A stretch of 64,000 bases of DNA from Candidatus Omnitrophota bacterium. Lineage in GTDB: Bacteria > Omnitrophota > Gorgyraeia > Zapsychrales > Zapsychraceae. Position 1 is the first letter of the stretch, and the number at the start of each line of letters is the position of its first letter. The position numbers and the translations under genes are program-made. Under the pieces are notes generated by a model that was not told where the DNA came from, ran no database searches, and saw nothing but the letters and a program-made list of their open reading frames with translations. Where the stretch lies: contig JAHFGL010000002.1 of assembly GCA_023247445.1 (NCBI GenBank), forward strand, positions 64,553 through 128,552. The letters are read 5' to 3'. This document shows positions 24,870 to 57,265 of this stretch, in pieces.

Positions 24870-24871
24870 TC

Positions 24872-41385: not shown

Positions 41386-42459
41386 ATGTTACAAAAGTTA
41401 GGCAAACTCGTAAAAAAATTCTTCAATTATATCCTCGGACTTTTTTCCAATGACATTGGTATCGATTTAGGGACAGCCACAACCCTTGTTTATGTTAAAG
41501 GGGAAGGGGTTGTTTTGTGTGAACCGTCTGTTGTGGCCATTGAAAAAGATACTAATCGTGTTATCGCGGTTGGAGATGAGGCGAAAAAGATGTTAGGTCG
41601 AACACCAGGAAATATTATTGCGATTCGTCCAATGAAAGATGGTGTTATCTCTGATTTTGAAATTACAGAAGCGATGCTCAAATATTTTATTAAGAAGGTT
41701 CATAAACGTAAGGTTCTTGTCCGTCCCGCGATGGTCATTGCGATTCCTTCAGGAATTACTGCCGTTGAAAAAAGGGCCGTACGTGATTCGGCGGAACGTG
41801 CTGGGGCCCGATCGGTTGAACTTATTGAAGAACCAAAGGCAGCCGCCGTTGGTGTTGGATTACCCGTTGAAGAAGCCGCCGGAAACATGATTATTGATAT
41901 CGGTGGCGGTACAACGGAGTTTGCGGTTATCTCTTTGGGTGGTATGGTTTATGCGAAATCGATTAAAATCGCCGGGGATGAGATGGATGAGGCGGTTATT
42001 GAATATTTGAGAAAGACGTATAATTTGATGATTGGTGAACGAACGGCTGAAGAAATTAAAATTCGTATTGGTTCAGCTTATCCACTTGAAGAAGAATTAA
42101 GTATGGATGTGCGTGGCCGCGATTTGATCTCAGGCTTACCAAAAACAATTACGATTACCTCAGTTGAAATTCGTGAGGCTTTGCATGATCCTGTTCAAGC
42201 CATTGTTGATGCTTCCAAAACAACGCTTGAGCAAACTCCACCAGAGCTTGCGGCTGATTTAATTGATCGTGGAATTGTTATGGCTGGAGGAGGATCTCTT
42301 CTACGTGGCATCGATAAACGTATTGCTGAAGAAACAGGATTGCCCGTCCATGTTGCCGATGACCCGTTAACAGCTGTCGTTTTAGGGACTGGCCAGACAC
42401 TCAGCATGGGACAACGTTTACGTCGTCGTATTGTTGTTCCCACAAAACTTGATTTTTAA
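41386..42459 (+). CDS. mreB: rod shape-determining actin homolog MreB
   Basis: [16 protein letters not shown], actin-fold phosphate/adenosine motifs, 357 aa. Confidence 0.95.
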
Positions 42460-42489
42460 CCCCCCATGAGTTCCCGGACGGTTTAATGA

Positions 42490-43275
42490 GTGTTCAAAAA
42501 AAATTACAAGTCTATAGCTTATATTCTCATTCTTATCCTGCCGCTTTTTCTACTTTTTTCCCAGTCTAAATTATTTTCCTCATTTAAATTTAGTATTATT
42601 GAAATTACATCTGTCCCGATGCAAATCATTTCTTTTCCTATTCGGGAAATAAGAAAAATGCTTTATTATCACTGGACATTTGAAGAATATAAAAGGTTGT
42701 CGAAAGAAAACAGTGTCCTTAAAACGCGTTTAGCTGGACTAGAGCAGACCATCAATGAGAATGCGCGTCTCGAACGTTTGTTAGAAGTTAAACGTAATTT
42801 AATCTATTCATCAGTCGCGGCGAACATTATTGGACGCGATCCCTCGTATTGGAATTCATCCATTATTATTGATAAAGGATCAGCAGAAGGTGTTCGGCAA
42901 GGATTCCCGGTTGTCAATGCCTGGGGCGTGGTTGGGAAGATCGTTGAGGTGGGCCCTCATAAAAGCAAAGTGATTCTTTTAACTGATCCAGAATTTAGTG
43001 TGGCGGCCACCATTGAGCGTTCCAGAGAGAGTGGGCTGGTCAGTGGAACACTCCAAGGTCTTTGTCGTATGAGATATCTTAGTGTTGATGCGGATGTTCG
43101 ATTGGGAGATAAGGTTATTACATCGAAATTAAGTTCTGCGTTTCCCGAGAATATGATGGTTGGTGAGATTATAAAAATAAATCAAACGGTGAATCAATCA
43201 TCGCTCGAGTGCCTCATTCGCCCAACGGTTCCGATATCTCAGTTAGAAGAGGTTTTGGTAATTCTAAAGCAGTAA
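42490..43275 (+). CDS. mreC: rod shape-determining protein MreC
   Basis: N-terminal TM, coiled coil, C-terminal beta-domain GFPVVNAWGVVGKIVEV. Confidence 0.85.
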   Translation: MFKKNYKSIAYILILILPLFLLFSQSKLFSSFKFSIIEITSVPMQIISFPIREIRKMLYYHWTFEEYKRLSKENSVLKTRLAGLEQTINENARLERLLEVKRNLIYSSVAANIIGRDPSYWNSSIIIDKGSAEGVRQGFPVVNAWGVVGKIVEVGPHKSKVILLTDPEFSVAATIERSRESGLVSGTLQGLCRMRYLSVDADVRLGDKVITSKLSSAFPENMMVGEIIKINQTVNQSSLECLIRPTVPISQLEEVLVILKQ

Positions 43276-43299
43276 GTTAACTCCATTCTAGAGTTTATT

Positions 43300-43785
43300 A
43301 TGCGAAAATTGGCATTAATTGCTGGCTTTGTTTTCGGCTTTTTTCTTGTTGAGCTATTAATATTCAATCTCGTTGGCCGCTTATTTATTCCTAATCTATT
43401 GCTGCTTTTAATCGTTTCTTTTAGTATTTTTTTTGGTATTCGTTATGGGCTTTTTACCGCCGTCTTAGCAGGTGTTTTAAGAGACAGCTTTAGCACGGAC
43501 CATTTTGGCCTCCATATTTTTACTTTTATTCTTTGTGCTTTTGCCACAATCCTTTTAAAAAGATATATTTATCATCGAGGTTCTCCATTCTCGTTTTTTC
43601 TTCTCACATTCTTAATAAGCCTTATCAATATTGTTACACAGTTTGTTTTAGGAATAATGCTAGGGCAAATTGATTTTTATCAAATGATTCGATTTGTTTT
43701 AATCCCCGAGGTTGTCAGTACCATTGTGATTGCTAATTTTGTCTTTTATCAATTAAGAACATGCGTATTAAAATTATTCGTCTAA
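43300..43785 (+). CDS. mreD: rod shape-determining protein MreD
   Basis: small polytopic membrane protein directly after mreC. Confidence 0.7.
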   Translation: MRKLALIAGFVFGFFLVELLIFNLVGRLFIPNLLLLLIVSFSIFFGIRYGLFTAVLAGVLRDSFSTDHFGLHIFTFILCAFATILLKRYIYHRGSPFSFFLLTFLISLINIVTQFVLGIMLGQIDFYQMIRFVLIPEVVSTIVIANFVFYQLRTCVLKLFV

Positions 43786-45476
43786 TTATTATTATTTTAT
43801 TTGCGATGATTGCCATGGAGCTTGTTTACATCCAGGCAATCCGCGGACAATACTTTTATCGTTTAAGCAAGAACAATCGTATTCGCGTTGTTCCATTAGA
43901 AGGCTCGCGTGGGCGCATTAAAGATGTTAATGGGGTTTTTATGGCGGACAATCGAATGGCCTATAATGTCGTCATCACTCCCCATGATTTAAAAGAAACG
44001 GATAAGGTCTTTCGTTTTTTAAGCGAAGTTTTGGATACAGATTTAAAAACAATTGCTAAACGATATCAACGTGATCGCACGGCCCCTTTTGCCCCAGTTA
44101 TTATTGCGGAAGATATTAACCGACGAACGGCAATTACCATCGAAGAAAATACTTATCGATTTCCGAGCCTTTCTATTCAAGAAAGTTTTAAGCGGTATTA
44201 TCCACTTGAAGATAATAGTGCGCATATCTTAGGATATGTTGGTAAACGTAATCGCACGGAGTCAGGGAGTTTTAAGGAATATGGTTATTCGCCACAAAGT
44301 ATGGTTGGTTATACAGGGATAGAAGAATATTATGATTCATTTTTGCGAGGAGAAGTTGGGGGAATACAGGTTGAGGTTAATAGCCGTGGTCAACAGGTAC
44401 GACTTCTTAGTTTTAAAGAACCTAAAAAGGGTGTGGATTTAATTTTGACAATTGATACGCGTATTCAACAAAAAGCACAAGAATTGTTAGCGGCACGAAG
44501 AGGGGTCGCCATTGTTATGGATATGGATAATGGAGAGATCTTGGGGCTGGTAAGTTCTCCGGGCTTTAATCCTAATGTTTTTATGAATAGTGAAGATAGA
44601 AAAAAGATTTCTTCACTTTTTTATGACACCGCATCACCGCTTTTAAATCGAGCGATTAAGGGATTGTTTCCGCCAGGATCAGTTTTTAAAGCTATCTTGG
44701 CCACGGCGGGATTAAATAATCAGACGATTTCAACAAATACAACTTTTATGTGTAATGGTGTTTATCAGTTGGGAGGCATGGAATTTCGGTGCACGCATAC
44801 CCACGGGGCGCAGAATATTTTTGAGGCTATTGCACATTCTTGTAATATTTATTTTTATCATTTAGGGTTAAAGTTGGGTGTTGATACCATTGAAGAATAT
44901 GCACAACTTTTTAATTTGGGCCACAAAACAAATATTGATCTTCCGTATGAAGAGGCGGGATCTATTCCCAGCCGTCAAGGCCGCTTAGCCAATCAAAAGA
45001 GAAAGTGGTATACAGGCGAAACATTAAATTTATCCATTGGACAAGGAGATGTTTTGACAACACCTCTTCAGTTAGTCCGCATGATGGCAACCATTGCCAG
45101 CGATGGACTTGAAGTTCAACCTCATGTGATTAAAGCTATGGGGGACAATTTCACTAATCAGTTTTCTGGGAAGAGACAAATTGATATAAGAAGAGATGTT
45201 TTTAAAAAAGTTAAGGAGGGGCTAAGACAGACGGTTACTGATCCAACCGGTACAGCCGCTGATTTAAATATATCTAATTTATATGTTGCGGGGAAAACCG
45301 GGACGGCGCAATCATCTGGTAATCAAGAAAATCATGCCTGGTTTGTTGGGTATGTTAAAGGGGAACATCGAAATGTTTCTTTTTGTGTCTTCCTTGAGCA
45401 TGGCGGTTCAAGTCATAATGCGGTTTTACTGTCACGGGAGTTGTTGGTTTATATGCAGAGTGAAGAAATATTATAA
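43761..45476 (+). CDS. mrdA: penicillin-binding protein 2 (elongasome transpeptidase)
   Basis: SVFK (SxxK), SCN, KTGT motifs; N-terminal TM; between mreD and rodA. Confidence 0.9.
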   Translation: MRIKIIRLIIIILFAMIAMELVYIQAIRGQYFYRLSKNNRIRVVPLEGSRGRIKDVNGVFMADNRMAYNVVITPHDLKETDKVFRFLSEVLDTDLKTIAKRYQRDRTAPFAPVIIAEDINRRTAITIEENTYRFPSLSIQESFKRYYPLEDNSAHILGYVGKRNRTESGSFKEYGYSPQSMVGYTGIEEYYDSFLRGEVGGIQVEVNSRGQQVRLLSFKEPKKGVDLILTIDTRIQQKAQELLAARRGVAIVMDMDNGEILGLVSSPGFNPNVFMNSEDRKKISSLFYDTASPLLNRAIKGLFPPGSVFKAILATAGLNNQTISTNTTFMCNGVYQLGGMEFRCTHTHGAQNIFEAIAHSCNIYFYHLGLKLGVDTIEEYAQLFNLGHKTNIDLPYEEAGSIPSRQGRLANQKRKWYTGETLNLSIGQGDVLTTPLQLVRMMATIASDGLEVQPHVIKAMGDNFTNQFSGKRQIDIRRDVFKKVKEGLRQTVTDPTGTAADLNISNLYVAGKTGTAQSSGNQENHAWFVGYVKGEHRNVSFCVFLEHGGSSHNAVLLSRELLVYMQSEEIL

Positions 45477-45478
45477 AA

Positions 45479-45555
45479 AGGTTTGTCACAAAGTCACCAA
45501 GTCACAAGGTCACCAAATTATGGTGACTTGGTGTCAGGTGACCTGTGACCTTGTG
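45479..45555. repeat. hairpin composed of eight GTCAC(C/A) units in inverted arrangement
   Basis: gtcacaaagtcaccaagtcacaaggtcacc aaattat ggtgacttggtgtcaggtgacctgtgaccttgtg fills the mrdA-rodA intergenic region. Confidence 0.75.
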
Positions 45556-45557
45556 TT

Positions 45558-46664
45558 ATGAGACGCGACTTAGAAAATAAAATTTGGATTTATACCTTGG
45601 CGATCATTGGGATAGGCTTGTTGGCCTTGTACAGCGCTTCATCGGTGAATGTCCGTGTTTCACAGCAAGTTTTTTATGACCAACTCTTATGTGTTTCCAT
45701 TGGGCTTGGTATTATGTATCTTTTAGGTAATGTTGATTACCGTCGATTTTATGATGGCGCTTATATTTTCTATATTGTTAATGTTTTTTTGTTAATCGGA
45801 GTTTTAGTAGGAGGGCGTCATGCGTTAGGGGCCCGGCGTTGGCTGGAAATCGCGGGACTTAGTTTTCAGCCATCGGAGTTTGCTAAATTAGCCCTCATCC
45901 TTATGCTGGGACGTTATTTTAGTAATCGACGGCCGACCCTTTCGTTTGATCTTTTGAGCAGAACACAAATTATTTTTAAAGGACTCATCATTCCTTTTTT
46001 ATTAACATCCGTTTTGATGATCCTTATTTTTAAGCAACCAGATCTTGGAACATCCATATTACTTTTTGGCGTGTTCGTAATTATGTTATTAGTTAGTGGT
46101 TTAGAATATCATTATCTGCTAACATTTCTAGGTTTATGTTTAATGGCGGTTCCGTTTTGCTGGAAGTTTCTTAAACCTTATCAAAAAGATCGACTTTTAG
46201 TTTTCTTAAATCCTAATATTGATCCTTTGGGAGCGGGATATACCATCATTCAATCCAAAATTGCGGTTGGTTCGGGTCAAATATTTGGTAAAGGTTGGCT
46301 GGCTGGAACGCAAAATCAATTGAATTTTTTACCGGAACGTCATACCGATTTTATTTTTTCTGTCATTGGCGAAGAGTGGGGACTACTTGGAACGTTACTA
46401 CTTGGCTATTTTTATTTCTTACTCATTGGATGTTGTTTTTCGATCGCTGAGCAGGTCAAAGATAAGTTTGGAACATTTGTCGTCATAGGGATTGTTTCTA
46501 TCCTGGCATTACAAGTTATTATTAATATCGGAATGGTCTTGGGTCTCTTTCCTGTCGTGGGTATTACCTTGCCTTTTATTAGCTATGGCCGTTCGTCCTT
46601 ATTGATTTTTCTTGTTATGATGGGATTTCTTCTTAATTTAAGCAAACGCCGAACGGTTTTTTGA
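45558..46664 (+). CDS. rodA: SEDS-family peptidoglycan glycosyltransferase RodA
   Basis: FtsW/RodA/SpoVE family pattern, 10 TM, follows mrdA. Confidence 0.9.
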   Translation: MRRDLENKIWIYTLAIIGIGLLALYSASSVNVRVSQQVFYDQLLCVSIGLGIMYLLGNVDYRRFYDGAYIFYIVNVFLLIGVLVGGRHALGARRWLEIAGLSFQPSEFAKLALILMLGRYFSNRRPTLSFDLLSRTQIIFKGLIIPFLLTSVLMILIFKQPDLGTSILLFGVFVIMLLVSGLEYHYLLTFLGLCLMAVPFCWKFLKPYQKDRLLVFLNPNIDPLGAGYTIIQSKIAVGSGQIFGKGWLAGTQNQLNFLPERHTDFIFSVIGEEWGLLGTLLLGYFYFLLIGCCFSIAEQVKDKFGTFVVIGIVSILALQVIINIGMVLGLFPVVGITLPFISYGRSSLLIFLVMMGFLLNLSKRRTVF

Positions 46665-46769
46665 TATTTCCGACGTATTTTATACCTTAAAAATTAAATT
46701 AATAATTTGTCGACTCATTATTACTATAGTAAAATCAAAACGCTAGAAGGCCTTGGGATCGTTTAACAT

Positions 46770-47219
46770 ATGAGACAATTTAAGAAAGTTACTAATAAAC
46801 ATCTGGGAGAACTCCTGGTTGAACGTGGCATTATCAGTCGAGAACAAGTCAACGTTGCCATCGCGCATCAAAAGGCTAGTGGCGGATTAATGGGGGAAGT
46901 ACTTGTTGAGTTAAAATTCGCGACCGAAAAAGATATTGCCCAGGCCATTACCTGCCAGTATGGATTTCCCTATCTACCGTTAGCTAATTATGAAATTGAC
47001 AAAGAGGTTGTTAATTCTGTCCCTGAAAATATTTGTCGCAAATTTTGTATTATTCCGATTGATATCATTGGAAAAAGTTTAACACTCGCTATGGCTAATC
47101 CACTTAATATCCAGGCCTTTGAAGATATCGAGCTGTTAACGGGTTGTTCAATTCAAGCCTTTGTGAGCACTTCTAGCGACATCAAACAGGCTATCGACAA
47201 ATATTACAAACCTTCGTAA
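46770..47219 (+). CDS. standalone MshEN-like / GspE-N-terminal domain protein (no ATPase domain)
   Basis: tandem 24-aa motifs HLGELLVERGIISREQVNVAIAHQ-KASGG-LMGEVLVELKFATEKDIAQAITCQ followed by T2SSE_N-like region (LAMANPLNIQAFEDIELLTG). Confidence 0.65.
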   Translation: MRQFKKVTNKHLGELLVERGIISREQVNVAIAHQKASGGLMGEVLVELKFATEKDIAQAITCQYGFPYLPLANYEIDKEVVNSVPENICRKFCIIPIDIIGKSLTLAMANPLNIQAFEDIELLTGCSIQAFVSTSSDIKQAIDKYYKPS

Positions 47220-47273
47220 GTTTTTTACAGGCTTTCGTATGAATATTTTAATTTTATGTAAAAAAGTTAATCA

Positions 47274-49025
47274 ATGGCCTCATTAAAAGACGATTTAAAA
47301 AAAATTCTTTTGCGCGACAATCTTATTTCTCCGGAAGATCTTACGCGCGCTGTTGAGGAGCAAAAAAAAACAGGAGGAGAGTTAAGTAGAATTCTTGTCC
47401 AGCTTAATGTCATCAGTGAAGATGTCTTGACCCAAGTCTTAAGCGAAGGGCTTGGCCTTCCCCCCATTAATATTGCCCGTCTTAAAATTGACCCGAACGT
47501 TGTAAAACTCATCTCCAAAGAATTAGCCATTAAATATAAGATTATTCCGATTTCACTCATGGGTGATCATTTAGCCTTGGCCATGGCGGATCCGCTTAAT
47601 ATTTTTATCATTGATAATATATCGGCATTGACGGGATATATCATTGATCCGATTGTTGGTCGATCTAAAGATATTGAGCAGACTATTCAAAAATATTATG
47701 TCGAGGTCGATACGGGGGCTAAACCATCAGAAGCTTTTGATAGTATTATTAAAGATTTCAAAGATGGTGGTGATTTAGAATTAGTTAAAGATTCCTTGGC
47801 TGATGCCAAGGGCGGTGGGAAGGTTGAGGAATTAACAGATGACGCCCCTATTATTAAATTAGCGGACACAATCATTCAGCAAGCTGTTGCCGCCAAGGCC
47901 AGTGACGTTTTTATCGAACCTTTAGAAAAAGCGATGCGTGTTCGTTATCGCGTGGATGGAGTTATTCGTGAAATTGATCGCATGTCAAAGGTACTTCATG
48001 CCCCACTTATTTCGCGTATTAAAGTTATTTCTAACCTAGATATCTCGGAACATCGTCTTCCTCAAGATGGCCGATTTAAAACGATTATTTCTGAAAATCG
48101 AGAAGTTGATTTTCGTGTTAATGTTTTACCGACGGCATTAGGGGAGAAGGTGGTTCTTCGTGTTTTAGATAAAACAGGATTTGTTTTAGATATTGATAAG
48201 TTAGGATTTGAGCCCAAGGCCTTAGAGCAACTAAAAGAATGTGGCCTAAGACCACATGGTTTGATTTTAACGTGTGGTCCAACCGGCAGCGGGAAAACAA
48301 CAACACTTTATTCTATTCTTAAACATGTTGATTCCCCCACAAAGAATATCGTAACGGTTGAAGATCCCGTGGAATTTCAGATTAAGGGATTGAATCAAGT
48401 TAATATTAAACCTGCGATGGGGCTTACTTTTCCAACGAGCTTACGGTCAATTCTTCGTCAAGATCCAGATATTATCATGATTGGTGAAATCCGCGATGCT
48501 GAGACACTCGACATTGCGATTAAAGCCGCGTTAACAGGGCACTTGGTTTTAAGTTCATTACATACAACAACAGCCGCGGGATCTATTGTGCGTATGATGA
48601 ATATGGGGATTGAACCATTTCTTATTTCTTCCTCGGCCTTAGCTATTGTTGCCCAACGGCTTTTGCGTAGGTTATGTCCTCGCTGCAAAGAAAGTTATGT
48701 TCTGCCGCCTGAGGTAGTTAAGGAAGTTGGACTAACTCGATTAACTTCGTCAAAGAAGGTTGAGCTATTTAAAGCCAAGGGATGTGAGCAATGTTATAAG
48801 TTGGGTTATCGTGGTCGTGTTGGGATTAATGAAATGTTGCTTTTTACCAACAAGATTAAGGAAGCCGTCTTGGCGGAAGAAGGGGAAATAAAGATTAAAG
48901 AAATTGCGCGATTAGAGGGCATGCGCACCATGCGTGAAGATGGACTTGTCAAAGCCTTGGCGGGATTAACAAGTTTGGAAGAAGTTTTAAGAGTTACAGC
49001 CCCGGATGAAAATTTAGAAGATTAA
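47274..49025 (+). CDS. pilB: type IV pilus/T2SS assembly ATPase PilB/GspE, copy 1
   Basis: Walker A GPTGSGKTTTLYS, Asp box, His box, tetracysteine CPRC...CEQC. Confidence 0.9.
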   Translation: MASLKDDLKKILLRDNLISPEDLTRAVEEQKKTGGELSRILVQLNVISEDVLTQVLSEGLGLPPINIARLKIDPNVVKLISKELAIKYKIIPISLMGDHLALAMADPLNIFIIDNISALTGYIIDPIVGRSKDIEQTIQKYYVEVDTGAKPSEAFDSIIKDFKDGGDLELVKDSLADAKGGGKVEELTDDAPIIKLADTIIQQAVAAKASDVFIEPLEKAMRVRYRVDGVIREIDRMSKVLHAPLISRIKVISNLDISEHRLPQDGRFKTIISENREVDFRVNVLPTALGEKVVLRVLDKTGFVLDIDKLGFEPKALEQLKECGLRPHGLILTCGPTGSGKTTTLYSILKHVDSPTKNIVTVEDPVEFQIKGLNQVNIKPAMGLTFPTSLRSILRQDPDIIMIGEIRDAETLDIAIKAALTGHLVLSSLHTTTAAGSIVRMMNMGIEPFLISSSALAIVAQRLLRRLCPRCKESYVLPPEVVKEVGLTRLTSSKKVELFKAKGCEQCYKLGYRGRVGINEMLLFTNKIKEAVLAEEGEIKIKEIARLEGMRTMREDGLVKALAGLTSLEEVLRVTAPDENLED

Positions 49026-49026
49026 T

Positions 49027-50736
49027 ATGAGCAAGACCTTAAAAGAGCGTATTTTAAAAACCTTGATCGATACTCAGAAATTAAAAAAAGAAGATATCGA
49101 TGAGGCAATGACGTTACAGAAAAAGAAGGGCATTAGTTTCGAAAAGGCTTTGATCGAGAAGGATTTGGTTAAAGAAAAAGATTTGTTGCTACTATTGGTA
49201 CGTGAGCTCAACATCCCTTTTATCAATTTAAATAAATATAGAATTGATCCAAATTTAAAAGAAATTGTTCCTGAGCGCATTGCCCGCCTTTATCACATTA
49301 TTCCCCTTTCTCTTTTGGAGTACACGTTAACGGTTGCTATCTCGGATCCCCTTAATATTTTTGTCATCGATGATCTTAAGAATATTACTGGAAAAGAAAT
49401 TGATGTGGTTATTAGCACGGATTCTGATATTGCCAAGGCCATTGATACGTATTATGGAACACAGGCGGCGGCGACCCTCAAAGAAATCAGTCAAGAGGTA
49501 AAGGCTGGAGAGCTAGAGATTGTTTCTGCTCATGATGTGGATGAAGAAATTGGTGGGGTTGTCGATGAAAGCCAAAAAGCGCCAATTATCCGCATGGTCA
49601 ATTTGATTATCAAGGAAGCGATTCGTCAGCGCGCGTCGGATATTCATATGGAACCGATGATTGATGGCATGCGCGTTCGTTACCGTATTGATGGAATTCT
49701 ACAAGATATTTTAAATGTTCCCAAGGTCAATCAGAACGCCGTTATTGTGCGCATTAAGATTATGGCGCAACTAGATATCACCACCGGCCATATCCCACAA
49801 GACGGCCGGTTTAAATCAAAAATGTCCGACAAGGAAATTGATTTTCGCGTATCGTTATTGCCAACGATCTATGGACAAAAAGTTGTTATGCGGGTATTAG
49901 ATAAAGGAAATCTTGCCGTTGGATTAAATGGGCTCGGTGTTTCACCAAAATCACTAGCTGTTTTAGAAGAGGCGATCAAAAAACCTTTTGGAATGATTTT
50001 GGTAACCGGGCCAACAGGAAGCGGTAAATCAACAACGCTTTATTCCATCGTCAATGAACTTAATACGGTTGATAAAAATATTGTCACCATTGAAGATCCT
50101 GTTGAATATTTGATTGAAGGTTTAACACAAATTCAAGCCCGTCCAGATATTGGATTAACCTTTGCGGAAGGTTTACGGGCGACACTTCGCCAAAGTCCGG
50201 ATGTTGTCATGGTGGGGGAAATTCGTGACAATGAAACGGCTGACATTGCGATTAAGGCATCTCTAACGGGTCAATTGGTTTTTTCGACGCTGCACACCAA
50301 CGATGCCCCTGGGGCTCTGACGCGTTTAGTGGACATGGGCGTTGAGCCTTTTTTAGTGGCGTCTAGTTTGGTTTTAGTTAGTGCGCAGCGTTTGTGCCGA
50401 AAAATATGTTCGGCCTGTAAGGAATCTGTTAAGATCGACCAACATGTTCTTGATCGATTAGAGTATAAGTTTAAATCAGGGACACTTTTTTATCATGGTA
50501 AAGGTTGTGATAACTGTCGACATACGGGCTATCGAGGCCGAACGTGTATTACAGAAGTTTTAGACATTGATGATGAAATTCGTAATATGTTGTTAGCTGG
50601 GAAATCATCACAGATTATCAAGCAATATGCTCAAGAGAAAAAGGGAATGAATACGCTCTGGGAAGATGCCATTGAAAAATGTCTTGCGGGGATTACAACG
50701 TTAGAAGAAGTTTTGCGTGTTACAACGAAAGAATAA
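49027..50736 (+). CDS. type IV pilus/T2SS assembly ATPase PilB/GspE, copy 2
   Basis: Walker A GPTGSGKSTTLYS, tetracysteine CSAC...CDNC; N-terminal GspE_N-like domain. Confidence 0.9.
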   Translation: MSKTLKERILKTLIDTQKLKKEDIDEAMTLQKKKGISFEKALIEKDLVKEKDLLLLLVRELNIPFINLNKYRIDPNLKEIVPERIARLYHIIPLSLLEYTLTVAISDPLNIFVIDDLKNITGKEIDVVISTDSDIAKAIDTYYGTQAAATLKEISQEVKAGELEIVSAHDVDEEIGGVVDESQKAPIIRMVNLIIKEAIRQRASDIHMEPMIDGMRVRYRIDGILQDILNVPKVNQNAVIVRIKIMAQLDITTGHIPQDGRFKSKMSDKEIDFRVSLLPTIYGQKVVMRVLDKGNLAVGLNGLGVSPKSLAVLEEAIKKPFGMILVTGPTGSGKSTTLYSIVNELNTVDKNIVTIEDPVEYLIEGLTQIQARPDIGLTFAEGLRATLRQSPDVVMVGEIRDNETADIAIKASLTGQLVFSTLHTNDAPGALTRLVDMGVEPFLVASSLVLVSAQRLCRKICSACKESVKIDQHVLDRLEYKFKSGTLFYHGKGCDNCRHTGYRGRTCITEVLDIDDEIRNMLLAGKSSQIIKQYAQEKKGMNTLWEDAIEKCLAGITTLEEVLRVTTKE

Positions 50737-50805
50737 TTTTTTCGTTATTTTCAATAGTTTAATTAATGTTAAAATAAAAACACCTTAATAAACCAAGGAG
50801 TTGGC

Positions 50806-51267
50806 GTGGCTATAATGGATGATGACGAAGAATCAAAAAAACAATTGTTAGGTGAGATATTGGTTAAACGCAATATCATAACCCCCAAGCAACTCGATAC
50901 CGCTTTAGAAGTTCAAAAAAAAGAAGAAGGGTATATTGGAGAGATTTTGGTCAGACTTGGATTTCTGGAAGAGCGGGATATTGTTGTTGCCTTGGTCGTT
51001 CAATGTAATCTTCCCTATATTGCGATCGATAAATATGAGATAGATCGCAGCATCCTTCAATTAATTCCACGAGAAATTGCTTTGAAGTATCATGTTATCC
51101 CTCTGGATCGTGTAGGGGATGTTCTTAGTGTGGTCATGGCTGACCCTTTAAATATTGCAACAAAAGCGGAGTTGCAGCGGATAACCAGCTGCCGTATTGC
51201 TCCTTTTATTGCAACGAAAATAGAAATCGAAAATTCCATTGAACGATGGTTTGGTAAGGAGAAATAG
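50806..51267 (+). CDS. standalone MshEN-like / GspE-N-terminal domain protein, copy 2
   Basis: GTG start with SD aaggag; motifs LLGEILVKRNIITPKQLDTALEVQ-KKEEG-YIGEILVRLGFLEERDIVVALVVQ then T2SSE_N-like region (VVMADPLNIATKAELQRITS). Confidence 0.65.
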   Translation: MAIMDDDEESKKQLLGEILVKRNIITPKQLDTALEVQKKEEGYIGEILVRLGFLEERDIVVALVVQCNLPYIAIDKYEIDRSILQLIPREIALKYHVIPLDRVGDVLSVVMADPLNIATKAELQRITSCRIAPFIATKIEIENSIERWFGKEK

Positions 51268-51268
51268 G

Positions 51269-52477
51269 ATGCCAACGTTTAAATACACAGCGAAAACAGA
51301 ACAGTCACAGACGGTCGCCGGTAAAATTGTTGCGGAAAATAACAAGGTGGTCATTGAAGAACTGCGTAAACGTAAATTAACGATTATTACTTTATCTGAA
51401 GTTAAAGAATCGTCGCCGTCAAAATTTAAATCCAAAGGAAGCAAAGTCAAAGGGGAAGAAATTGTTATCTTTGCCCGACAGTTAGCAACGATGGTTGATG
51501 CTGGGATTCCAATTTTGCAGGCGATTAATGCGCTCAAAGATCAAGTAACTCATGTGGGATTTCAAAAGATTTTGGGGAACGTGGAAAGTGATATTCAGCA
51601 CGGAAGTAGTTTGTCCGCGGCCTTTGCCAAACATCCCATAACGTTTGATACACTTTTTGTCAGCATGGTTCGCGTCGGAGAAACAGGAGGAGTTTTAAGT
51701 GCGATTCTTGATCGTGTGGCTACCTATATGGAAAAAACTTTAAAATTAAAACGTAAGGTTAAATCAGCCTTAGTTTATCCAGCGGTGGTTGTGAGTATGG
51801 CGATTATTATCACAACTGTTTTACTTGTAAAGGTTGTTCCTACCTTTGCCGGGATCTATTCATCATTTGGTTCAAAATTACCCGCGATGACCCAGATGCT
51901 ATTGACTATTAGCAACATTTTAAAAAAGGATTTGATTTTTGTGATTATCGCTATTGGCGCCATTGTTTTTGCTTTGAAGAAATGGCATGGCACTGATAAG
52001 GGGGCACTAGCCATCGACGGGTTTCTTTTAAAAATGCCGATTTTTGGAGAGCTTCTACGAAAGTTTTCGATTAGTCGATTTACACGAACTTTGGCGACTT
52101 TGGTGCAAAGTGGTGTTCCTATTTTGGAATCTTTAGATATCGTCGGAAAGACTATTGGTAATCGTGTTTTAGAGTTGGTTGTTCAGGATGTTAAAAATAG
52201 TGTTCGTGAAGGACAGAGCATTGCCGCGCCTTTAAATAAAAGTGGCGTTTTTCCTCCCATGGTTACACGGATGATTGCTATTGGGGAGAAGTCTGGTCAA
52301 TTAGAAAAAATGCTTCTTAAAATTTCTGAATTTTATGATGATCAAGTTGATGCCTCGGTTGATGCTTTAACCAGCATCATTGAGCCGTTGATTATTGGTA
52401 TTTTGGGAATTATTATTGGTTTTATTGTCATCGCATTATTTTTACCAATTATCAGCATCACACAGTTGGTTAAGTAA
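51269..52477 (+). CDS. pilC: type IV pilus inner-membrane platform protein PilC/GspF
   Basis: two T2SSF repeats, three TM; ORF track start 51239 overlaps upstream gene, ATG 51269 preferred. Confidence 0.85.
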   Translation: MPTFKYTAKTEQSQTVAGKIVAENNKVVIEELRKRKLTIITLSEVKESSPSKFKSKGSKVKGEEIVIFARQLATMVDAGIPILQAINALKDQVTHVGFQKILGNVESDIQHGSSLSAAFAKHPITFDTLFVSMVRVGETGGVLSAILDRVATYMEKTLKLKRKVKSALVYPAVVVSMAIIITTVLLVKVVPTFAGIYSSFGSKLPAMTQMLLTISNILKKDLIFVIIAIGAIVFALKKWHGTDKGALAIDGFLLKMPIFGELLRKFSISRFTRTLATLVQSGVPILESLDIVGKTIGNRVLELVVQDVKNSVREGQSIAAPLNKSGVFPPMVTRMIAIGEKSGQLEKMLLKISEFYDDQVDASVDALTSIIEPLIIGILGIIIGFIVIALFLPIISITQLVK

Positions 52478-53495
52478 TTTATTCGGGAGAAAAGATATTT
52501 TTAACACACTTTTTTATATTACTTTGATAAGTTTGTGGCTGTGTAGTGGATCGTCTTTGGCCTGGGCACAGCAAAAAAGAGATATCCCCGTTAATCAAAT
52601 CTTAGAATCCAGCCTTACGAGCCTCAAAGATAGTGCTCAGAAAGTCCAAGAGCGTAATCAGTGGCTGTCTCTTGAAACCCAAAGACTTCAAAATGAAATC
52701 AAAGAATACAAGAAAGATTTAGAAAAGCTAGAAGAAGGCCGATCAAAGTTAACCGCAGGCGTCGCCCAGCAAGATCAGCTTTTAAATCATGTGAGTAAAG
52801 AAGCCACACTTGTTGAAAAAGGCGTTAAGCGACTCAATAAGGATATCAATCAATTAACGGCTGAAGAGAAGGATATCGAAGCAAAGATCGAAGCTAACCG
52901 TCAAGGATATCAAGAAATCAAGAATCAAATTGAATCGCGTCAGAAAGAGATTTCTCAACTAAAAGAACGAGGAGTTACTTTATCGAACATGCTATCTGGT
53001 AAAGACTCTAATATAGAGAAAGAGAAATTATTAAAATCTATTGAAGCGAGCAAAAAAAATGTTGGTTTTGCACAAAAGAAGTTAAAGCAATTAGCGGGTG
53101 AGCGTGACAGACCGCTAACAATGATTTCTGATTTAGAGAAGAAGCAGAAGCTATTAAAGGAACAATTGAGTGGGTTAGAGCAAGAGTATGGTTTTATATT
53201 AGAAGAGGAAAAAAATGTTATTAATAATATAGAAAATGTGAAGAAAGAAAAAGAAACCCAATTGCCGCAGTTAACAGAAGAGGTTAATCAGCTCAAGGTC
53301 AAAAGTAATGAATTGGAAGATGTTCTTAGCAAAGCTAAGGCAAAACTCAAGGAAAGTGAATTAAATTTAGCAAATGGGGAGCTGGAAGAGTCTCAGTTGC
53401 GACAAAATTTGACGGTTATTAAGAAGGAAACTATCGGATTAAAGGATGAATTGTTGTCTTTGGGCAAAACTCTAGAACAGATAGAGAATAATTAG
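52395..53495 (+). CDS. secreted/membrane-anchored coiled-coil protein in pilus cluster
   Basis: signal-like LISLWLCSGSSLAWAQQ then ~300 aa heptad-rich; real start may be downstream (e.g. TTG ~52524). Confidence 0.4.
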   Translation: MVFWELLLVLLSSHYFYQLSASHSWLSNLFGRKDIFNTLFYITLISLWLCSGSSLAWAQQKRDIPVNQILESSLTSLKDSAQKVQERNQWLSLETQRLQNEIKEYKKDLEKLEEGRSKLTAGVAQQDQLLNHVSKEATLVEKGVKRLNKDINQLTAEEKDIEAKIEANRQGYQEIKNQIESRQKEISQLKERGVTLSNMLSGKDSNIEKEKLLKSIEASKKNVGFAQKKLKQLAGERDRPLTMISDLEKKQKLLKEQLSGLEQEYGFILEEEKNVINNIENVKKEKETQLPQLTEEVNQLKVKSNELEDVLSKAKAKLKESELNLANGELEESQLRQNLTVIKKETIGLKDELLSLGKTLEQIENN

Positions 53496-53782
53496 GGGAT
53501 AGGGGCAGTTTGACACCCCTCTGCCAGCATGTTATACTTTCGACGCAGATATGAAAGGGTAAACCTTCCGTAAGGATGGGACACAAAACTATAGGGCCCT
53601 ACAATAGAGGGCAGCCAGTTGCCAAGATGAGCGATTTTTGTGAACCTATTCCCAAAGAAGGAATAGGTTTTTTTATCAGTGTAGGAAAGTATATAGGAAT
53701 TTAGAAACTGCTAGAAAATTCCTTTCCTACACAGCAAAGAAGATATGACGAACGAAGTGAGGAATTTTCTTGTGAAAAGTCT

Positions 53783-53809
53783 TTGATAACTTGTTATCTG
53801 TGCTATAAT
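53783..53809 (+). promoter_or_regulatory. candidate promoter upstream of pilA (TTGATA-15-TGcTATAAT) overlapping GATAAC-TTG-TTATC palindrome
   Basis: ttgata 53783-53788, extended -10 tgctataat 53801-53809; spacer only 15 nt. Confidence 0.25.
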
Positions 53810-54012
53810 TACGACAACTTCGAAGAAAGTATAAATGAGAATAAGGGAGGTGGAATCGAAGTCGTAGAGTAATAACAATGCAACAAACTGGGCAATTAGT
53901 TAGAAAATAAATCCGATAAGGGAAAACGGTCTTATACCTTAAATAAAATACAGTAATAAGAACCTTTTCGGGAAATGACTAAAAGCTCAAAAATCGAAAA
54001 GGAGAGATTAAA

Positions 54013-54411
54013 ATGAAACGAACAAATCAAAGTGGTTTTACGTTAGTAGAAATTATGATCGTTGTTGCGATCATTGCGCTATTAGCGGCGATTGCAATTC
54101 CAAACTTACTTCGCGCTAAGATTTCAGCCAATGATGCCAACGCGCAGGCAACTTTGCGAAGTATGTCTACTGCTTCCGAAACTTTTGGAACAGCAAACAA
54201 TGGGAGTTATCCAGCAGCGGTCACCTCAATGGTTACAGGGTCTACACCACCCTATCTTAATAGTAACTATTGCGGGGTAACGATGGATGGGTATGCGTTT
54301 TCATGTACTAATACGACAGGTGCATATACTTATATCGCAACACCGACTACGGTAGGAACAACAGGGACGACAACCTACACAATGACAACAGGCGGAATTT
54401 TAACTCCGTAA
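54013..54411 (+). CDS. pilA: type IV major pilin (class III signal peptide)
   Basis: N-terminus MKRTNQSGFTLVEIMIVVAIIALLAAIAIPNLL; strong SD aaaaggagag; Thr/Gly-rich C-terminus. Confidence 0.85.
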   Translation: MKRTNQSGFTLVEIMIVVAIIALLAAIAIPNLLRAKISANDANAQATLRSMSTASETFGTANNGSYPAAVTSMVTGSTPPYLNSNYCGVTMDGYAFSCTNTTGAYTYIATPTTVGTTGTTTYTMTTGGILTP

Positions 54412-54439
54412 TTGTTTTTGTGTGGTTTGAATTATTATA

Positions 54440-54476
54440 AAAAGGAGAGCTTGAATCAAGCTCTCCTTTTTATTTA
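54440..54476 (+). terminator. strong intrinsic terminator after pilA
   Basis: ggagagcttga-a-tcaagctctcc perfect 11-bp stem followed by tttttattt. Confidence 0.8.
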
Positions 54477-54674: not shown

Positions 54675-55730
54675 ATGCATCCGCTATTATCGAATTACTT
54701 CAATTTTATCCATAAATTTACTTCTCCTATCAAAGAAAGCTCTTCTGTCGGGTTAGACATTGGGACCAGTGAATGTAAACTTATCGAGATTTCTAAATCC
54801 AATGATTCCTTCGAACTATTATCTTGGGCCGTCGATCCTGTTTTAGACGGCAATGTGGCCGCAACGCTGCAAAAAATGCTGAGTCGTTTAAAGATTCCTT
54901 GCAAGGCTCCCTATACATCTATTTTTGGAAAAGGAACACTCATTCGTTATATTGATATGCCGCGAATGTCAAAAGACGAGCTAAAAAATTCTTTTGGTAT
55001 TGAATCGGATAAATATTTTCCATTTCCTCAAGATAAAATCTACACAGATTGTTATATTTTAGATGCCCAAGCCGCTGGTCAACAAATGTCCGTTATGGCC
55101 GCTGCCGTCAAAAGAGAAATTGTTGATCAACGGATCAAGTTGTTAAGTGATTTAGGAGCGCAAGCAGATTTTATTGGCCTCGACTCTATCGCTTTAGCGA
55201 ATGTAATTAATGTTTTAGGCTGTAAAGAAGAAGCGGATAAGAATACAGGGATGGCGCTATTAGATATGGGAGATACTGTTTCCAATCTTACTATTTTTGT
55301 TGATCGCCTACCGAGGTTTTCTCGTGATATTTATATTGGAGGACGTGATTTTACAAAAAGTATCAGCAATGCCTTGGGTGTAGGATTTGCAGATGCCGAA
55401 AAGCTTAAAATAAATCCAGGCGAAAGATTAAAAGATGTTGCGATCGCTTATGAGTCAGTTATTGGTAATATTGTTCAAGAATTAAAATTATCCTTTGATT
55501 ATTTTGTTACAGAAAGAAACAAAGAAATCCAAACACTTTTGTTAACGGGAGGATGTTCTTTGCTGACAGGAGTCTCGGATACGTTAAAGAGCAACTTAGA
55601 AATTAAGGTTCAGGCTTGGGATCCCTTCTCAAATATTAAAATTAATCCTGAATTATCAGGGGTAGAAATTCATAAAAACGCTGCGAAATTAAGCGTGGCC
55701 TTAGGTTTGGCCCTTTACGATTATGATTGA
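54675..55730 (+). CDS. pilM: type IV pilus assembly ATPase-fold protein PilM
   Basis: VGLDIGTSECKLIEI actin-like N-terminus; perfect tataat at 54662-54667 ends 7 nt before ATG. Confidence 0.85.
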   Translation: MHPLLSNYFNFIHKFTSPIKESSSVGLDIGTSECKLIEISKSNDSFELLSWAVDPVLDGNVAATLQKMLSRLKIPCKAPYTSIFGKGTLIRYIDMPRMSKDELKNSFGIESDKYFPFPQDKIYTDCYILDAQAAGQQMSVMAAAVKREIVDQRIKLLSDLGAQADFIGLDSIALANVINVLGCKEEADKNTGMALLDMGDTVSNLTIFVDRLPRFSRDIYIGGRDFTKSISNALGVGFADAEKLKINPGERLKDVAIAYESVIGNIVQELKLSFDYFVTERNKEIQTLLLTGGCSLLTGVSDTLKSNLEIKVQAWDPFSNIKINPELSGVEIHKNAAKLSVALGLALYDYD

Positions 55731-56307
55731 TATTAATTTAATTCCACCTAATTTGAGAAAGAAACGAAAAGGTCAGTTTGCCATCGGGCAATCAACCTTG
55801 CCTCTTGAGGTTATTATTGGGATTGGAGGAGGGTTTTTAGCCTTTCTATTTTTGCTTCATGTGACGTTGTTTTTGGTCGATATGTCAAAGAAAGCTTACA
55901 AAATGAGTTTGCAAAAACAGTGGGATAATATGTCGCCGGCGAAACAAAAATTCGATGCCATGGTTAATGATATGCACAGCTTGCAGAGTAAACAAAAGAC
56001 CATTGAAGATTTGGTTGGCAGTAGCCGTATTTTGTGGTCGCAAAAGTTAAATATATTAAGTGATCTTTTGCCTCGAGGCGTTTGGTTACGGAAAATGGAA
56101 TTACAAGACAGTCTTTTGCTGGTCGAAGGCAGTGCTATTTCACGAAAGAATGAAGAGATGACGAATGTTCATAGTTTTGCCTCGAGCCTTAAGGCTAATA
56201 AAGATTTTATGGATCATTTTAGTGATTTAGAATTGGGAGCCATTCAAACACGAACCATCGGTAAGGTCGAAATCGCCGATTTTATTTTTAAAACAAAATC
56301 AAAATGA
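55723..56307 (+). CDS. pilN: PilN
   Basis: MIDINLIPP N-terminus, single TM, follows pilM with overlap. Confidence 0.75.
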   Translation: MIDINLIPPNLRKKRKGQFAIGQSTLPLEVIIGIGGGFLAFLFLLHVTLFLVDMSKKAYKMSLQKQWDNMSPAKQKFDAMVNDMHSLQSKQKTIEDLVGSSRILWSQKLNILSDLLPRGVWLRKMELQDSLLLVEGSAISRKNEEMTNVHSFASSLKANKDFMDHFSDLELGAIQTRTIGKVEIADFIFKTKSK

Positions 56308-56894
56308 GCTTTAAAATTCCTGACAATCTTTCTGCTGTTCTTGATAAGATCAACAAGGGGAATCAATATTATGTCCTCGGTGGTCTAATCCTGTTTGTTT
56401 TTCTTTTCGATTATTTTTTACTCATGCGTCCTCAGCTGAGCTCTTCGGCGAAAGCAAGTCAAGAAATTAAAAAATTGGCTGGTGATTTCAAAAAAGCCAA
56501 AGAAGATCTCGCTAAGAGTGGTGGCTATCAAAAAGAAGTCGATCGGCTTAAAGAAAAATTTGAGAGTATGAGCCGTAAAGTTAAATCTAAAGAAGAAGTT
56601 TCGTTAATTTTGGAGCGTGTTTCGCGGTTGGCTTATAAAAATGGTATAAAAATTGATCAGATGGTGCCTAACAGTCAGGAAATAGAGGTCTTAGTTAAGA
56701 ATAATGACCGGTCTTATTCTGCGCTTCCGATCCTAGTAGAGGCTAAAACGGGATATCATAATTTAGGAAAATTTATTAATGATATTGAACGGGATGATAT
56801 GTTTTTAACTGTTGACAGTTTTACAATTTCAACGATAATGGAGTCGCGTCAATTAGAGGTTCAGTTAACTTTGAAAGCCATTGTCTTTGAATAA
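56304..56894 (+). CDS. pilO: PilO
   Basis: single TM, coiled coil, position between pilN and pilP. Confidence 0.65.
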   Translation: MSFKIPDNLSAVLDKINKGNQYYVLGGLILFVFLFDYFLLMRPQLSSSAKASQEIKKLAGDFKKAKEDLAKSGGYQKEVDRLKEKFESMSRKVKSKEEVSLILERVSRLAYKNGIKIDQMVPNSQEIEVLVKNNDRSYSALPILVEAKTGYHNLGKFINDIERDDMFLTVDSFTISTIMESRQLEVQLTLKAIVFE

Positions 56895-56909
56895 CTTTCG
56901 TCTCTGCTA

Positions 56910-57248
56910 ATGATTAAGAAAAATATTCTATTTATAGCGTTTATGTTTATTGCCACAGCGGTCTCAGCTGAAGAGAGCGTTTTTACCTACAATGATCACG
57001 GCAAGCGTGATCCTTTTTGGATTTTGGTCAATTCTGGTGGAGCGGTTCTTAATTACGATACAGATTATTTGATTGCCGATTTAACTCTTGAAGGAATTAC
57101 GATGGGTGCCAATGGTGATAATGTGGCCATTATTAATGGCCGAGTTGTAAAAATTAATGATACGATTGGTCAGTATATTGTTTCAAAAGTTAATAAAGAT
57201 TCTGTAACCCTCACAAAGGGGCAGGAAACATTTGAATTGAAATTATAA
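56910..57248 (+). CDS. pilP: PilP-like lipoprotein/periplasmic protein
   Basis: signal peptide, C-terminal beta domain (LEGITMGANGDNVAIINGRVVKINDTIGQYIVSKV). Confidence 0.55.
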   Translation: MIKKNILFIAFMFIATAVSAEESVFTYNDHGKRDPFWILVNSGGAVLNYDTDYLIADLTLEGITMGANGDNVAIINGRVVKINDTIGQYIVSKVNKDSVTLTKGQETFELKL

Positions 57249-57265
57249 TTAGGAGGATTTGTCTC

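Follow-up and report, generated by a model that had tools for sequence, protein, structure and literature searches.

How does a second messenger act on a type IV pilus motor when the domain predicted to bind it is encoded apart from that motor? This question is raised by a 64,000-nucleotide (nt) stretch of DNA from a Candidatus Omnitrophota bacterium (GenBank assembly GCA_023247445.1, contig JAHFGL010000002.1; the whole stretch is referred to here as the window), in which two small open reading frames (ORFs) flank two genes for PilB/GspE-type assembly ATPases. We refer to the 149-amino acid (aa) product of the ORF at 46770-47219 as s1, to the 153-aa product of the ORF at 50806-51267 as s2, and to the two ATPases encoded between them as PilB-A and PilB-B. 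Both small proteins are complete MshEN domains that lack an ATPase. In most systems the MshEN (or N1D) domain, through which pilus ATPases bind cyclic dimeric guanosine monophosphate (c-di-GMP), is flexible and covalently attached to the motor, and its control of PilB-type motors is described as poorly understood in a 2024 review of PilB cofactors (PMC11656802). Here the copy predicted to bind the ligand is a separate, conserved protein of 150 aa. With moderate confidence, we read this arrangement as the separation of a c-di-GMP-sensing MshEN domain from its motor, in which s1 would be the detached sensor of PilB-A, and s2 a paralogue that appeared later in one subclade. The reading builds on the identity and fold of the domains, the conservation of their motifs, purifying selection, synteny and a naturally fused form.

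Domain identity and predicted binding-site residues

Both small proteins score far above the cut-off of 23.1 bits for the Pfam family PF05157 (MshEN; 77.4 bits for s1 and 75.1 bits for s2), with a match that spans their C-terminal 85 residues. They also match the 53-residue NCBIfam model NF053729 ('c-di-GMP_motif'; cut-off 38 bits), s1 with 61.3 bits at residues 12-61 and s2 with 60.5 bits at residues 15-64 (E about 1e-16). Neither protein has a T2SSE or other ATPase-family match in searches against Pfam and NCBIfam profiles. Each carries a pair of 24-residue motifs spaced by five residues (KASGG and KKEEG, respectively), and each pair gives a gap-free alignment with residues 9-61 of Vibrio cholerae MshE (5HTL). 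In s1, motif I occupies residues 11-34, the spacer residues 35-39 and motif II residues 40-63, followed by an N1E-like subdomain at about residues 64-147. Alignments of s1 to sequences in the PDB run from end to end with the N-domains of Geobacter PilB, Myxococcus xanthus PilB and V. cholerae MshE, and with all three GSPII domains of Thermus thermophilus PilF. The coordinates and lengths of the small ORFs, their motif strings and spacer, and the description of a complete N-terminal module without an ATPase domain all stand as given in the initial annotation of the window.

The predicted structures agree with these assignments. AlphaFold2 models of s1 and s2, with mean predicted local distance difference test (pLDDT) scores of 92.3 and 88.2, consist of four helices followed by an alpha/beta (N1E-like) subdomain. 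For both models the top PDB match found by Foldseek is 5HTL, the MshEN domain in complex with c-di-GMP, with template modelling (TM) scores of 0.77-0.86 and root-mean-square deviations of 1.9-2.3 Å. The next matches are PilF GSPII-B with c-di-GMP and then the complex of the Xanthomonas citri PilB N-domain with PilZ (7LKM/7LKO).

The two large ORFs are, at the family level and as judged from their sequences, PilB/GspE ATPases. Both combine PF00437 (T2SSE) with PF05157, and Walker A, Walker B, His box and tetracysteine motifs are visible in each; their description as full-length motors flanked by the small ORFs is thereby upheld. They reach 639.2 (PilB-A) and 613.1 bits (PilB-B) against the PilB equivalog model TIGR02538, both under its cut-off of 675.65 bits, and their ATPase cores are 50% identical to each other. 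All four proteins of the locus therefore contain PF05157, and the search of their N-domains with NF053729 exceeds 38 bits for s1, s2 and PilB-A (50.1 bits) and falls below it for PilB-B (21.4 bits). The idea that s1 might be more 'ancestral' than the N-domain of PilB-A was rejected, as both are 42% identical to the N-domain of Geobacter PilB.

What distinguishes the free proteins from the motors is the set of residues that contact the ligand. In V. cholerae MshEN (VcMshEN), each guanine is held by the backbone amides of the glycine at motif position 3 and of the residue after it, by a leucine triad and by the terminal glutamine (Wang et al., 2016; PMC5013675). Binding of c-di-GMP by the G11L mutant was undetectable by isothermal titration calorimetry, and neither G11L nor G40I was stabilised by c-di-GMP in differential scanning fluorimetry; single leucine-to-alanine changes cost more than 10-fold in affinity, and changes of Arg9 less than 5-fold (Wang et al., 2016; PMC5013675).

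All orthologues of s1, s2, PilB-A and PilB-B were placed on the 5HTL sequence, taken from the PDB alignment, and are described here in 5HTL numbering. In s1, Gly11, Gly40 and Gln61 are present in 26 of 26 orthologues and Gln32 in 23 of 26; in s2, all four residues are present in 11 of 11. Pooled over both free proteins, Gly11, Gly40 and Gln61 are found in 37/37 sequences and Gln32 in 34/37. The motors differ: Gly11 is present in 0/23 PilB-A and 0/20 PilB-B orthologues, Gly40 in 4/23 and 0/20, and Gln61 in 0/23 and 1/20 (0/43, 4/43 and 1/43 when pooled), with Gln32 remaining in 22/23 and 19/20. Position 1 of the motif also varies between the families. At residue 9 it is Q, H or T in s1, L, F or I in s2, Arg in 22/23 PilB-A and mostly Lys or Arg in PilB-B; at residue 38 it is Leu in 26/26 s1, Y, V or F in s2, mostly Glu or Ser in PilB-A and mostly Ser or Gly in PilB-B.

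The proteins of the window follow this pattern. s1 and s2 have Gly11, Gly40, Gln32 and Gln61, and are hydrophobic at six of the six triad positions (10, 25, 29, 39, 54 and 58). PilB-A has K and S at position 3 and a motif II ending in G, and PilB-B has L and E at position 3 and a motif II ending in E; the N-domains of both motors nevertheless retain the hydrophobic core of the helical bundle. On the aligned sequences, the ligand-contacting glycines and glutamines are thus conserved in the free proteins at all sampled loci and lost from both motors, which upholds the earlier remark that the ATPases have lost their motif glycines.

Conservation, gene order and a natural fusion

s1 and s2 are conserved genes under purifying selection. 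Database searches returned 1644 relatives of s1, the best 120 of which are 148-162 aa long and 71-89% identical to it; for s2, the best 120 have lengths of 143-175 aa and identities of 58-81%. Every relative of s1 or s2 that carries an organism name is from Candidatus Omnitrophota, and among 20 short MshEN representatives that were looked up, three carry such a name, all three Omnitrophota. Ratios of non-synonymous to synonymous substitution (dN/dS; Nei-Gojobori method, locus pairs with dS below 1.5) are 0.056 for s1 (15 pairs), 0.115 for s2 (3 pairs), 0.071 for PilB-A and 0.052 for PilB-B. With a mean identity to the window protein of 68.5%, s1 is as conserved as the ATPase cores (about 70%) and more so than the PilB N-domains (about 61%).

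Scanning a single genome for each GTDB species yielded 24 Omnitrophota loci, which were analysed by ORF calling and phmmer together with locus L002, a 1.2-Mb contig. Wherever a locus extends far enough to show it, the gene order is rodA ... s1-PilB-A-PilB-B-(s2)-pilC; the survey of stand-alone MshEN genes beside pilB that the initial annotation had proposed reveals, in these loci, a recurrent arrangement. s1 and PilB-A are closely packed: seven loci show a 1-nt overlap of the s1 stop with the PilB-A start, and of the 22 distinct loci with both genes called, 11 have a gap of at most 3 nt. In the window, the s1 stop is followed by a 54-nt spacer, and the two genes are in the same frame. Joining of s1 to PilB-A by read-through or frameshifting was considered and rejected for the window, because the spacer holds two additional in-frame stops.

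The position of s2 is more variable. Of the 18 loci that reach pilC, 11 have s2 between PilB-B and pilC; L008, L015 and L018 lack it, as do the four loci of a distant clade that extend to pilC (L022, L024, L027 and L028). In this distant clade, in which s1 is 57-60% identical to that of the window, the order is rodA, radical-SAM gene, HAMP-GAF-GGDEF gene, pilT, s1, PilB-A, PilB-B, pilC. Free MshEN proteins therefore do bracket the ATPase pair in the window, as first described, but the bracketing does not extend to 7 of the 18 loci or to any of the distant clade. A similar restriction applies to the retraction ATPase. No PilT homologue was detected in the 64-kb window by phmmer or in a Pfam sweep, in agreement with the initial annotation, but the sister clade has pilT directly upstream of s1 (in L022 at 8927-9994, encoding 355 aa with 479 bits against the PilT/PilU model TIGR01420, cut-off 319 bits, and also in L024-L028), and the system as a whole cannot be described as lacking pilT. 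In this small sample, s2 and a clustered pilT appear mutually exclusive, the clade of the window having s2 without clustered pilT and the sister clade the reverse.

Two further observations concern the sampled loci. The motor operon of the type IVa pilus (T4aP) lies directly downstream of mreBCD-PBP2-rodA in the window and in nearly every Omnitrophota locus examined (L002 and L005-L028), and only a GGDEF, pilT or radical-SAM gene is found inserted between them. Furthermore, among the GTDB/GenBank MAG records, L007, L008, L013, L018 and L021 are labelled 'uncultured Planctomycetales' and L020 is labelled 'Lysobacterales', with s1-PilB-A-PilB-B loci that are 67-75% identical to Omnitrophota ones; these labels are probably wrong or placeholders.

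A gene for a HAMP-GAF-GGDEF protein accompanies s1 in two clades. In L002 an orthologue at 8571-10004 directly precedes s1, with a 4-bp overlap at the s1 start. In the distant clade the gene comes before the pilT-s1 pair (at 7462-8910 in L022, and also in L024-L028).

A further link between s1 and PilB-A is a fusion. Exhaustive searching of 1.84 billion cluster representatives with phmmer produced 22,047 matches, and classification of the best 151 of these yielded 67 proteins with a single MshEN domain and no ATPase, 59 with several MshEN domains and no ATPase, and 25 ATPases with two to four MshEN domains. P0250, a 765-aa protein, consists of a canonical MshEN domain (four of the four Gly/Gln positions), a 40-residue linker rich in Gly, Asn and Lys, a degenerate MshEN domain (one of four) and an ATPase. 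Its first domain is 46% identical to s1, 43% to s2 and 28-29% to the PilB N-domains of the window, to which the second domain is closer (35-37%). The ATPase matches PilB-A best (445 vs 374 bits), and in its locus (L030, 62.5% GC) the fusion gene is followed by a second PilB gene that matches PilB-B best (462 vs 398 bits), and then by pilC. An s1 gene was thus fused to the adjacent PilB-A gene at least once, a Rosetta-stone indicator that s1 and PilB-A work as one unit. Taken together, the conservation of the genes, the division of intact and degenerate motifs, the fusion, the abutting genes and the GGDEF neighbour in two clades support a predicted functional tie of s1 to PilB-A and to c-di-GMP signalling.

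In many proteins from the same search (within the set P0241-P0390), MshEN domains are repeated two to seven times in tandem and no ATPase is present; P0245, P0251 and P0285, of about 1300 aa, are examples. We did not find this architecture discussed in the literature on MshEN and PilB cofactors that we examined.

A proposed detached sensor and its rivals

In the mechanism that we favour, s1 has kept the ligand-contact residues known from V. cholerae MshE and from PilF GSPII-B, whereas PilB-A and PilB-B retain only the fold of the MshEN domain, and this copy presumably docks PilM and partner proteins. s1 and s2 would bind c-di-GMP and act in trans. Loaded with c-di-GMP, s1 would associate with the PilB-A hexamer, in physical contact either with the degenerate N-domain of PilB-A, much as PilZ contacts the non-binding N-domain of X. 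citri PilB (PMC11656802), or, via its N1E-like subdomain, with a site beside that domain on the PilM ring. Ligand-bound s1 would then promote engagement of the motor with the PilM/PilC platform, leading to pilus extension; the sign of this regulation is borrowed from MshE, M. xanthus PilB and PilF, in which c-di-GMP promotes pilus assembly or function. s2, which would have arisen later in one subclade and be translationally coupled to pilC, may add a second sensory input, the target of which is probably PilB-B or the platform. The initial annotation had envisaged a split c-di-GMP sensing arrangement acting on both ATPases. The division between intact and degenerate motifs across about 24 species and the fusion speak for the split itself, but the link is specific to s1 and PilB-A, and the evidence for neither small protein extends to both motors.

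Several findings weigh against a detached sensor. The first concerns motif position 1, which is R in the original consensus and [RKPN] in its relaxed form (Wang et al., 2016; PMC5013675). In the window, the motifs I and II begin with H and L in s1 and with L and Y in s2, and never with Arg. The published consensus is therefore matched at Gly position 3, at Gln position 24 and in the five-residue spacer, but not, as had been claimed, throughout. PilF GSPII-B binds c-di-GMP with a dissociation constant (Kd) of 6 nM and has Lys and Leu at position 1, so that Arg is dispensable there; the consensus was accordingly extended to (R/K/L)LG..., and a hydrophobic position 1 was proposed to predict very high affinity (Neissner et al., 2024; PMC11731258). 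Against this extended form, the H of s1 falls outside, the L of s1 and that of s2 are allowed, and the Y of s2 is hydrophobic but unlisted. Across orthologues, position 1 of s1 motif I (H/Q/T) and of s2 motif II (Y/V/F) lies outside both the original and the extended consensus. Secondly, the helix-turn glycines Gly18 and Gly47 are kept in only one half of each protein (G and K in s1, N and G in s2). Thirdly, 22 of 23 PilB-A orthologues carry Arg at motif position 1, and their helical bundle is conserved, despite the loss of the motif glycines and terminal Gln. This Arg may be vestigial or may make a contact that does not involve c-di-GMP, and PilB-A may have residual ligand binding.

Further such points concern the profile score, the fusion and the source of the ligand. 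The score of a hidden Markov model fails to separate binders from non-binders: NF053729 gives 83.5 bits for VcMshEN and 63.3 bits for GSPII-B, just above s1 and s2, and 52.4 bits for PilF GSPII-A, which has a degenerate motif II and does not bind c-di-GMP (Neissner et al., 2024; PMC11731258). Use of the model's cut-off as a predictor of binding was rejected for this reason, GSPII-A lying above 38 bits and close to PilB-A. The fusion was seen in one cluster only; the database proteins closest to it, PilBs of about 573 aa from high-GC Omnitrophota, are unfused. No GGDEF, EAL, HD-GYP or PilZ gene was detected in the window, by Pfam on ORFs of at least 150 aa and on the operon genes or by phmmer. 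In the GGDEF genes that neighbour s1 elsewhere, the motif reads GDYEF (L002), GGDSF (L025), SGDTF (L022, L024 and L026) or SGDEF (L027 and L028), and the RxxD I-site is missing, so that a local source of c-di-GMP is not established. Most of these copies are probably catalytically inactive and may be sensors or scaffolds; the candidate role of a dedicated local cyclase is weakened by a degenerate motif in five of the seven loci, SGDEF in the other two, and the lack of an I-site.

Some of these points recur in an alternative that we regard as unlikely: s1 and s2 may be ligand-independent structural or adaptor subunits, that is, extra docking modules of the N1E type that bind PilM, PilC or the PilB hexamer and aid the assembly or stability of a complex of two motors. 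Their C-terminal subdomain is homologous to the GspL-binding N1 domain of EpsE/GspE, which appears among the fold matches of both models (2BH1 and 4PHT), and the N-domain of X. citri PilB is stabilised by PilZ, which does not itself bind c-di-GMP (PMC11656802). The missing Arg at position 1, the mostly degenerate GGDEF domains nearby and the precedent of PilF GSPII-A, a well-scoring MshEN domain that does not bind, would fit as well. Conservation of the motif would then reflect the stability of the four-helix bundle alone. However, the residues kept in s1 and s2 but lost from the PilB N-domains are ligand contacts, namely the glycine at position 3 and the terminal Gln, and the PilB N-domains keep their hydrophobic core without them, which indicates that bundle stability does not require these residues. 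Moreover, all four Gly/Gln positions are kept in 33 of the 56 single-domain representatives of at most 230 aa in the wider family.

A second alternative, which we consider still less probable, has the small proteins as c-di-GMP-controlled decoys or inhibitors that compete with the N-domains of PilB-A and PilB-B for docking sites on PilM, and so block one motor or switch between the two instead of activating one. An N1E-like subdomain that shares its fold with that of the ATPases would suit such a competitor, as would the presence of two motors with up to two small proteins, and motor exchange at the platform in Pseudomonas aeruginosa is thought to be competitive (PMC11656802). A pure competitor of PilB-A is hard to square with the covalent s1~PilB-A fusion in L030; the tight translational coupling of s1 and PilB-A suggests co-assembly instead, and in the characterised MshEN ATPases c-di-GMP promotes assembly or function.

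About as improbable, in our estimate, is a c-di-GMP-operated selector, in which the free MshEN proteins determine which of the two PilB paralogues is seated on the PilM/PilC platform. PilB-A would be licensed by s1, and s2 would either license PilB-B or gate PilC. In clades without a clustered PilT, the two extension-type motors would act in opposite or distinct phases of the pilus cycle, such as priming and processive extension, or extension and retraction. If true, this would be a naturally modular system that reveals how an N1D/MshEN domain relays c-di-GMP occupancy to the PilB hexamer.

Finally, the labels 'type IV pilus assembly protein PilB' or 'GspE, partial' that some sources attach to homologues might suggest functionless, decaying remnants or mis-called fragments of ATPase genes, a possibility named in the initial annotation to which we give practically no credence and which is excluded by a length of about 150 aa kept in at least 240 clusters (many on long contigs), by dN/dS ratios of 0.06 to 0.12, by the Shine-Dalgarno sequence of s2 and the coupling of pilC to its stop, and by the lack of ATPase-like sequence after either ORF together with the two further in-frame stops in the s1-PilB-A spacer.

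Locus context and relation to known systems

The genes discussed here are part of a single co-directional array at 41386-58648 that runs from mreBCD-PBP2-rodA through s1, PilB-A, PilB-B, s2, pilC, a coiled-coil gene and the pilin gene to pilMNO, a pilP-like gene and pilQ (Table 1). The operon context (pilC, pilin and pilMNOPQ) indicates that the locus is the cytoplasmic motor module of an Omnitrophota T4aP, in which PilM is the presumed docking partner of N1E-type domains.

Table 1. Features of the pilus array and the genes preceding it (positions in the window).
Feature	Position	Strand	Evidence
mreB-mreC-mreD-PBP2-rodA	41386..46664	+	ORF calling; Pfam annotation of the same genes in L002
s1, stand-alone MshEN protein, 149 aa, ATG start, predicted c-di-GMP receptor	46770..47219	+	PF05157, NF053729, AlphaFold2
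PilB-A, PilB/GspE-type hexameric assembly ATPase, 583 aa, degenerate MshEN N-domain	47274..49025	+	PF00437 458.5 bits, PF05157 67.3 bits
PilB-B, second PilB/GspE-type ATPase, 569 aa, most degenerate N-domain motif	49027..50736	+	PF00437 438.7 bits
s2, second stand-alone MshEN protein, 153 aa, GTG start, subclade-restricted	50806..51267	+	PF05157, NF053729, AlphaFold2
PilC platform protein	51269..52477	+	PF00482 T2SSF 222.7 bits
Conserved coiled-coil protein, 366 aa, hydrophobic N-terminus	52395..53495	+	Weak coiled-coil Pfam matches alone
Major pilin, type IV, N-methylation motif	54013..54411	+	PF07963 N_methyl 37.2 bits
pilM-pilN-pilO-pilP-like-pilQ, alignment subcomplex and secretin	54675..58648	+	ORF calling

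PilB-B starts 1 nt past the PilB-A stop, and the GTG start of s2 lies 5 nt downstream of an AAGGAG Shine-Dalgarno sequence. According to a direct reading of the s2-pilC junction, another AAGGAG, at 51256-51261 within s2, serves pilC, the true start of which is likely the ATG at 51269, 1 nt past the s2 stop. The coiled-coil gene sits between pilC and the pilin gene, as do weak homologues at the equivalent position in many related loci; its listed TTG start, which overlaps pilC by 83 nt, is probably too early. The identity of pilM and pilO was taken from an 87%-identical relative, in which genes of identical length match PF11104 (PilM_2) and PF04350 (PilO), and that of the secretin from a phmmer match of the window ORF to the Pfam-annotated secretin of L002. 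A promoter and terminator scan of 45400-54800 gave counts that are not above those of shuffled sequence (32 vs 25.4 ± 5.5, and 8 vs 7.9), and so neither supports nor opposes separate transcription.

The remainder of the window holds several further features. A second secretin (1750-3624, 624 aa; PF00263, Secretin_N and a GspD N0 domain) lies distant from the pil cluster, preceded by a 274-aa AAA_22 ATPase (73-897) and a 204-aa ORF without Pfam matches; this region may encode a separate secretion or pilus outer-membrane channel. An ORF of 2137 aa (13911-20324) has no Pfam match at E ≤ 1e-5, and very long orphan proteins are known in Omnitrophota (PMC10066038; bioRxiv 10.64898/2026.06.07.730766). 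At 21631-28017, a UvrD-type helicase of 1052 aa precedes a PD-(D/E)XK nuclease protein of 955 aa, and the two resemble an AddAB/RexAB-like pair. Tandem, overlapping paralogues of the prolipoprotein diacylglyceryl transferase Lgt, of 252 and 249 aa, are found at 36571-37329 and 37310-38059, directly after signal peptidase II.

The uncultured phylum Omnitrophota consists of ultra-small bacteria that probably depend on a host, to which their pili are believed to attach them (PMC10066038). The Omnitrophota literature that we examined contains no mention of c-di-GMP or of PilB regulation, and a search for stand-alone MshEN proteins in pil operons, or for PilB or c-di-GMP in this phylum, found nothing specific. 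A detached sensor would offer an initial hypothesis for how the T4aP, near-universal in Omnitrophota, is regulated. Hundreds of database entries now named 'hypothetical protein' or 'PilB (partial)' probably represent dedicated receptors for c-di-GMP. The split lineage also provides a tractable system, with a degenerate copy on the motor and a natural fusion as control, in which sensor and motor could be titrated against each other.

Many elements of this arrangement are already known: the domain, its ligand, its association with PilB, MshEN proteins without an ATPase, motors with several MshEN domains of mixed binding capacity, and relay to a non-binding PilB N-domain. In Wang et al. (2016) and its supplement, the 2024 review of PilB cofactors and the Omnitrophota genomics papers, we found no description of a conserved operonic layout in which tandem PilB paralogues with degenerate sites are preceded, and in some cases also followed, by a free canonical MshEN protein.

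The closest counterparts in domain and fold (TM 0.77-0.86) are V. cholerae MshEN (5HTL), M. xanthus PilB and Clostridium perfringens PilB2, which share the two 24-residue motifs and the five-residue spacer. V. cholerae MshEN and the PilB N-domains that bind c-di-GMP further share the glycine at position 3, the Leu/Ile triads, the terminal Gln and the tie to a type IV pilus ATPase. In the window, by contrast, the domain is a separate polypeptide, the Arg at position 1 is replaced and the ATPases' own N-domains are degenerate.

Other systems resemble parts of the arrangement. In the FimX-PilZ-PilB system of Xanthomonas (7LKM/7LKO) and with FimX and PilB of P. aeruginosa, the c-di-GMP signal also reaches PilB via separate proteins, and the MshEN-like, non-binding N-domain of Xanthomonas PilB docks a small protein (PMC11656802). 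The receptor there is a degenerate EAL protein (FimX) and the adaptor has a PilZ fold, whereas here the putative receptor is itself an MshEN domain, in a window without an EAL or PilZ gene. P. aeruginosa PA3740 (MshEN plus a divergent T2SSE_N1) is likewise a free-standing MshEN protein without an ATPase; it is listed among the confirmed c-di-GMP binders (Wang et al., 2016, with other architectures in Supplementary Table 4) and affects swarming. Its C-terminal subdomain is highly divergent, in contrast to the canonical PF05157 subdomain of s1 and s2, and we found no report that places PA3740 in a pil operon or pairs it with PilB. PilB and TfpB of Acinetobacter baylyi are similar in that two extension-type ATPases apparently serve one pilus machine. 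The ATPases of the window reach only 457 and 462 bits against the TfpB model, the cut-off of which is 850, and descriptions of the A. baylyi pair do not mention tandem genes accompanied by free MshEN proteins.

Finally, T. thermophilus PilF offers a precedent for several MshEN domains per motor with a division of labour, GSPII-A being a non-binder and GSPII-B and GSPII-C binders, and for nanomolar binding with a hydrophobic residue or Lys at position 1. The fusion in L030 has the same two-domain arrangement as PilF-like (MshEN)n-T2SSE ATPases, among which (MshEN)2-4-T2SSE proteins are listed in Supplementary Table 4 of Wang et al. (2016). The window differs from these in that the extra domain is its own gene and not covalently joined to the motor, that two paralogous ATPases stand in tandem, and that a free s2 follows the second.

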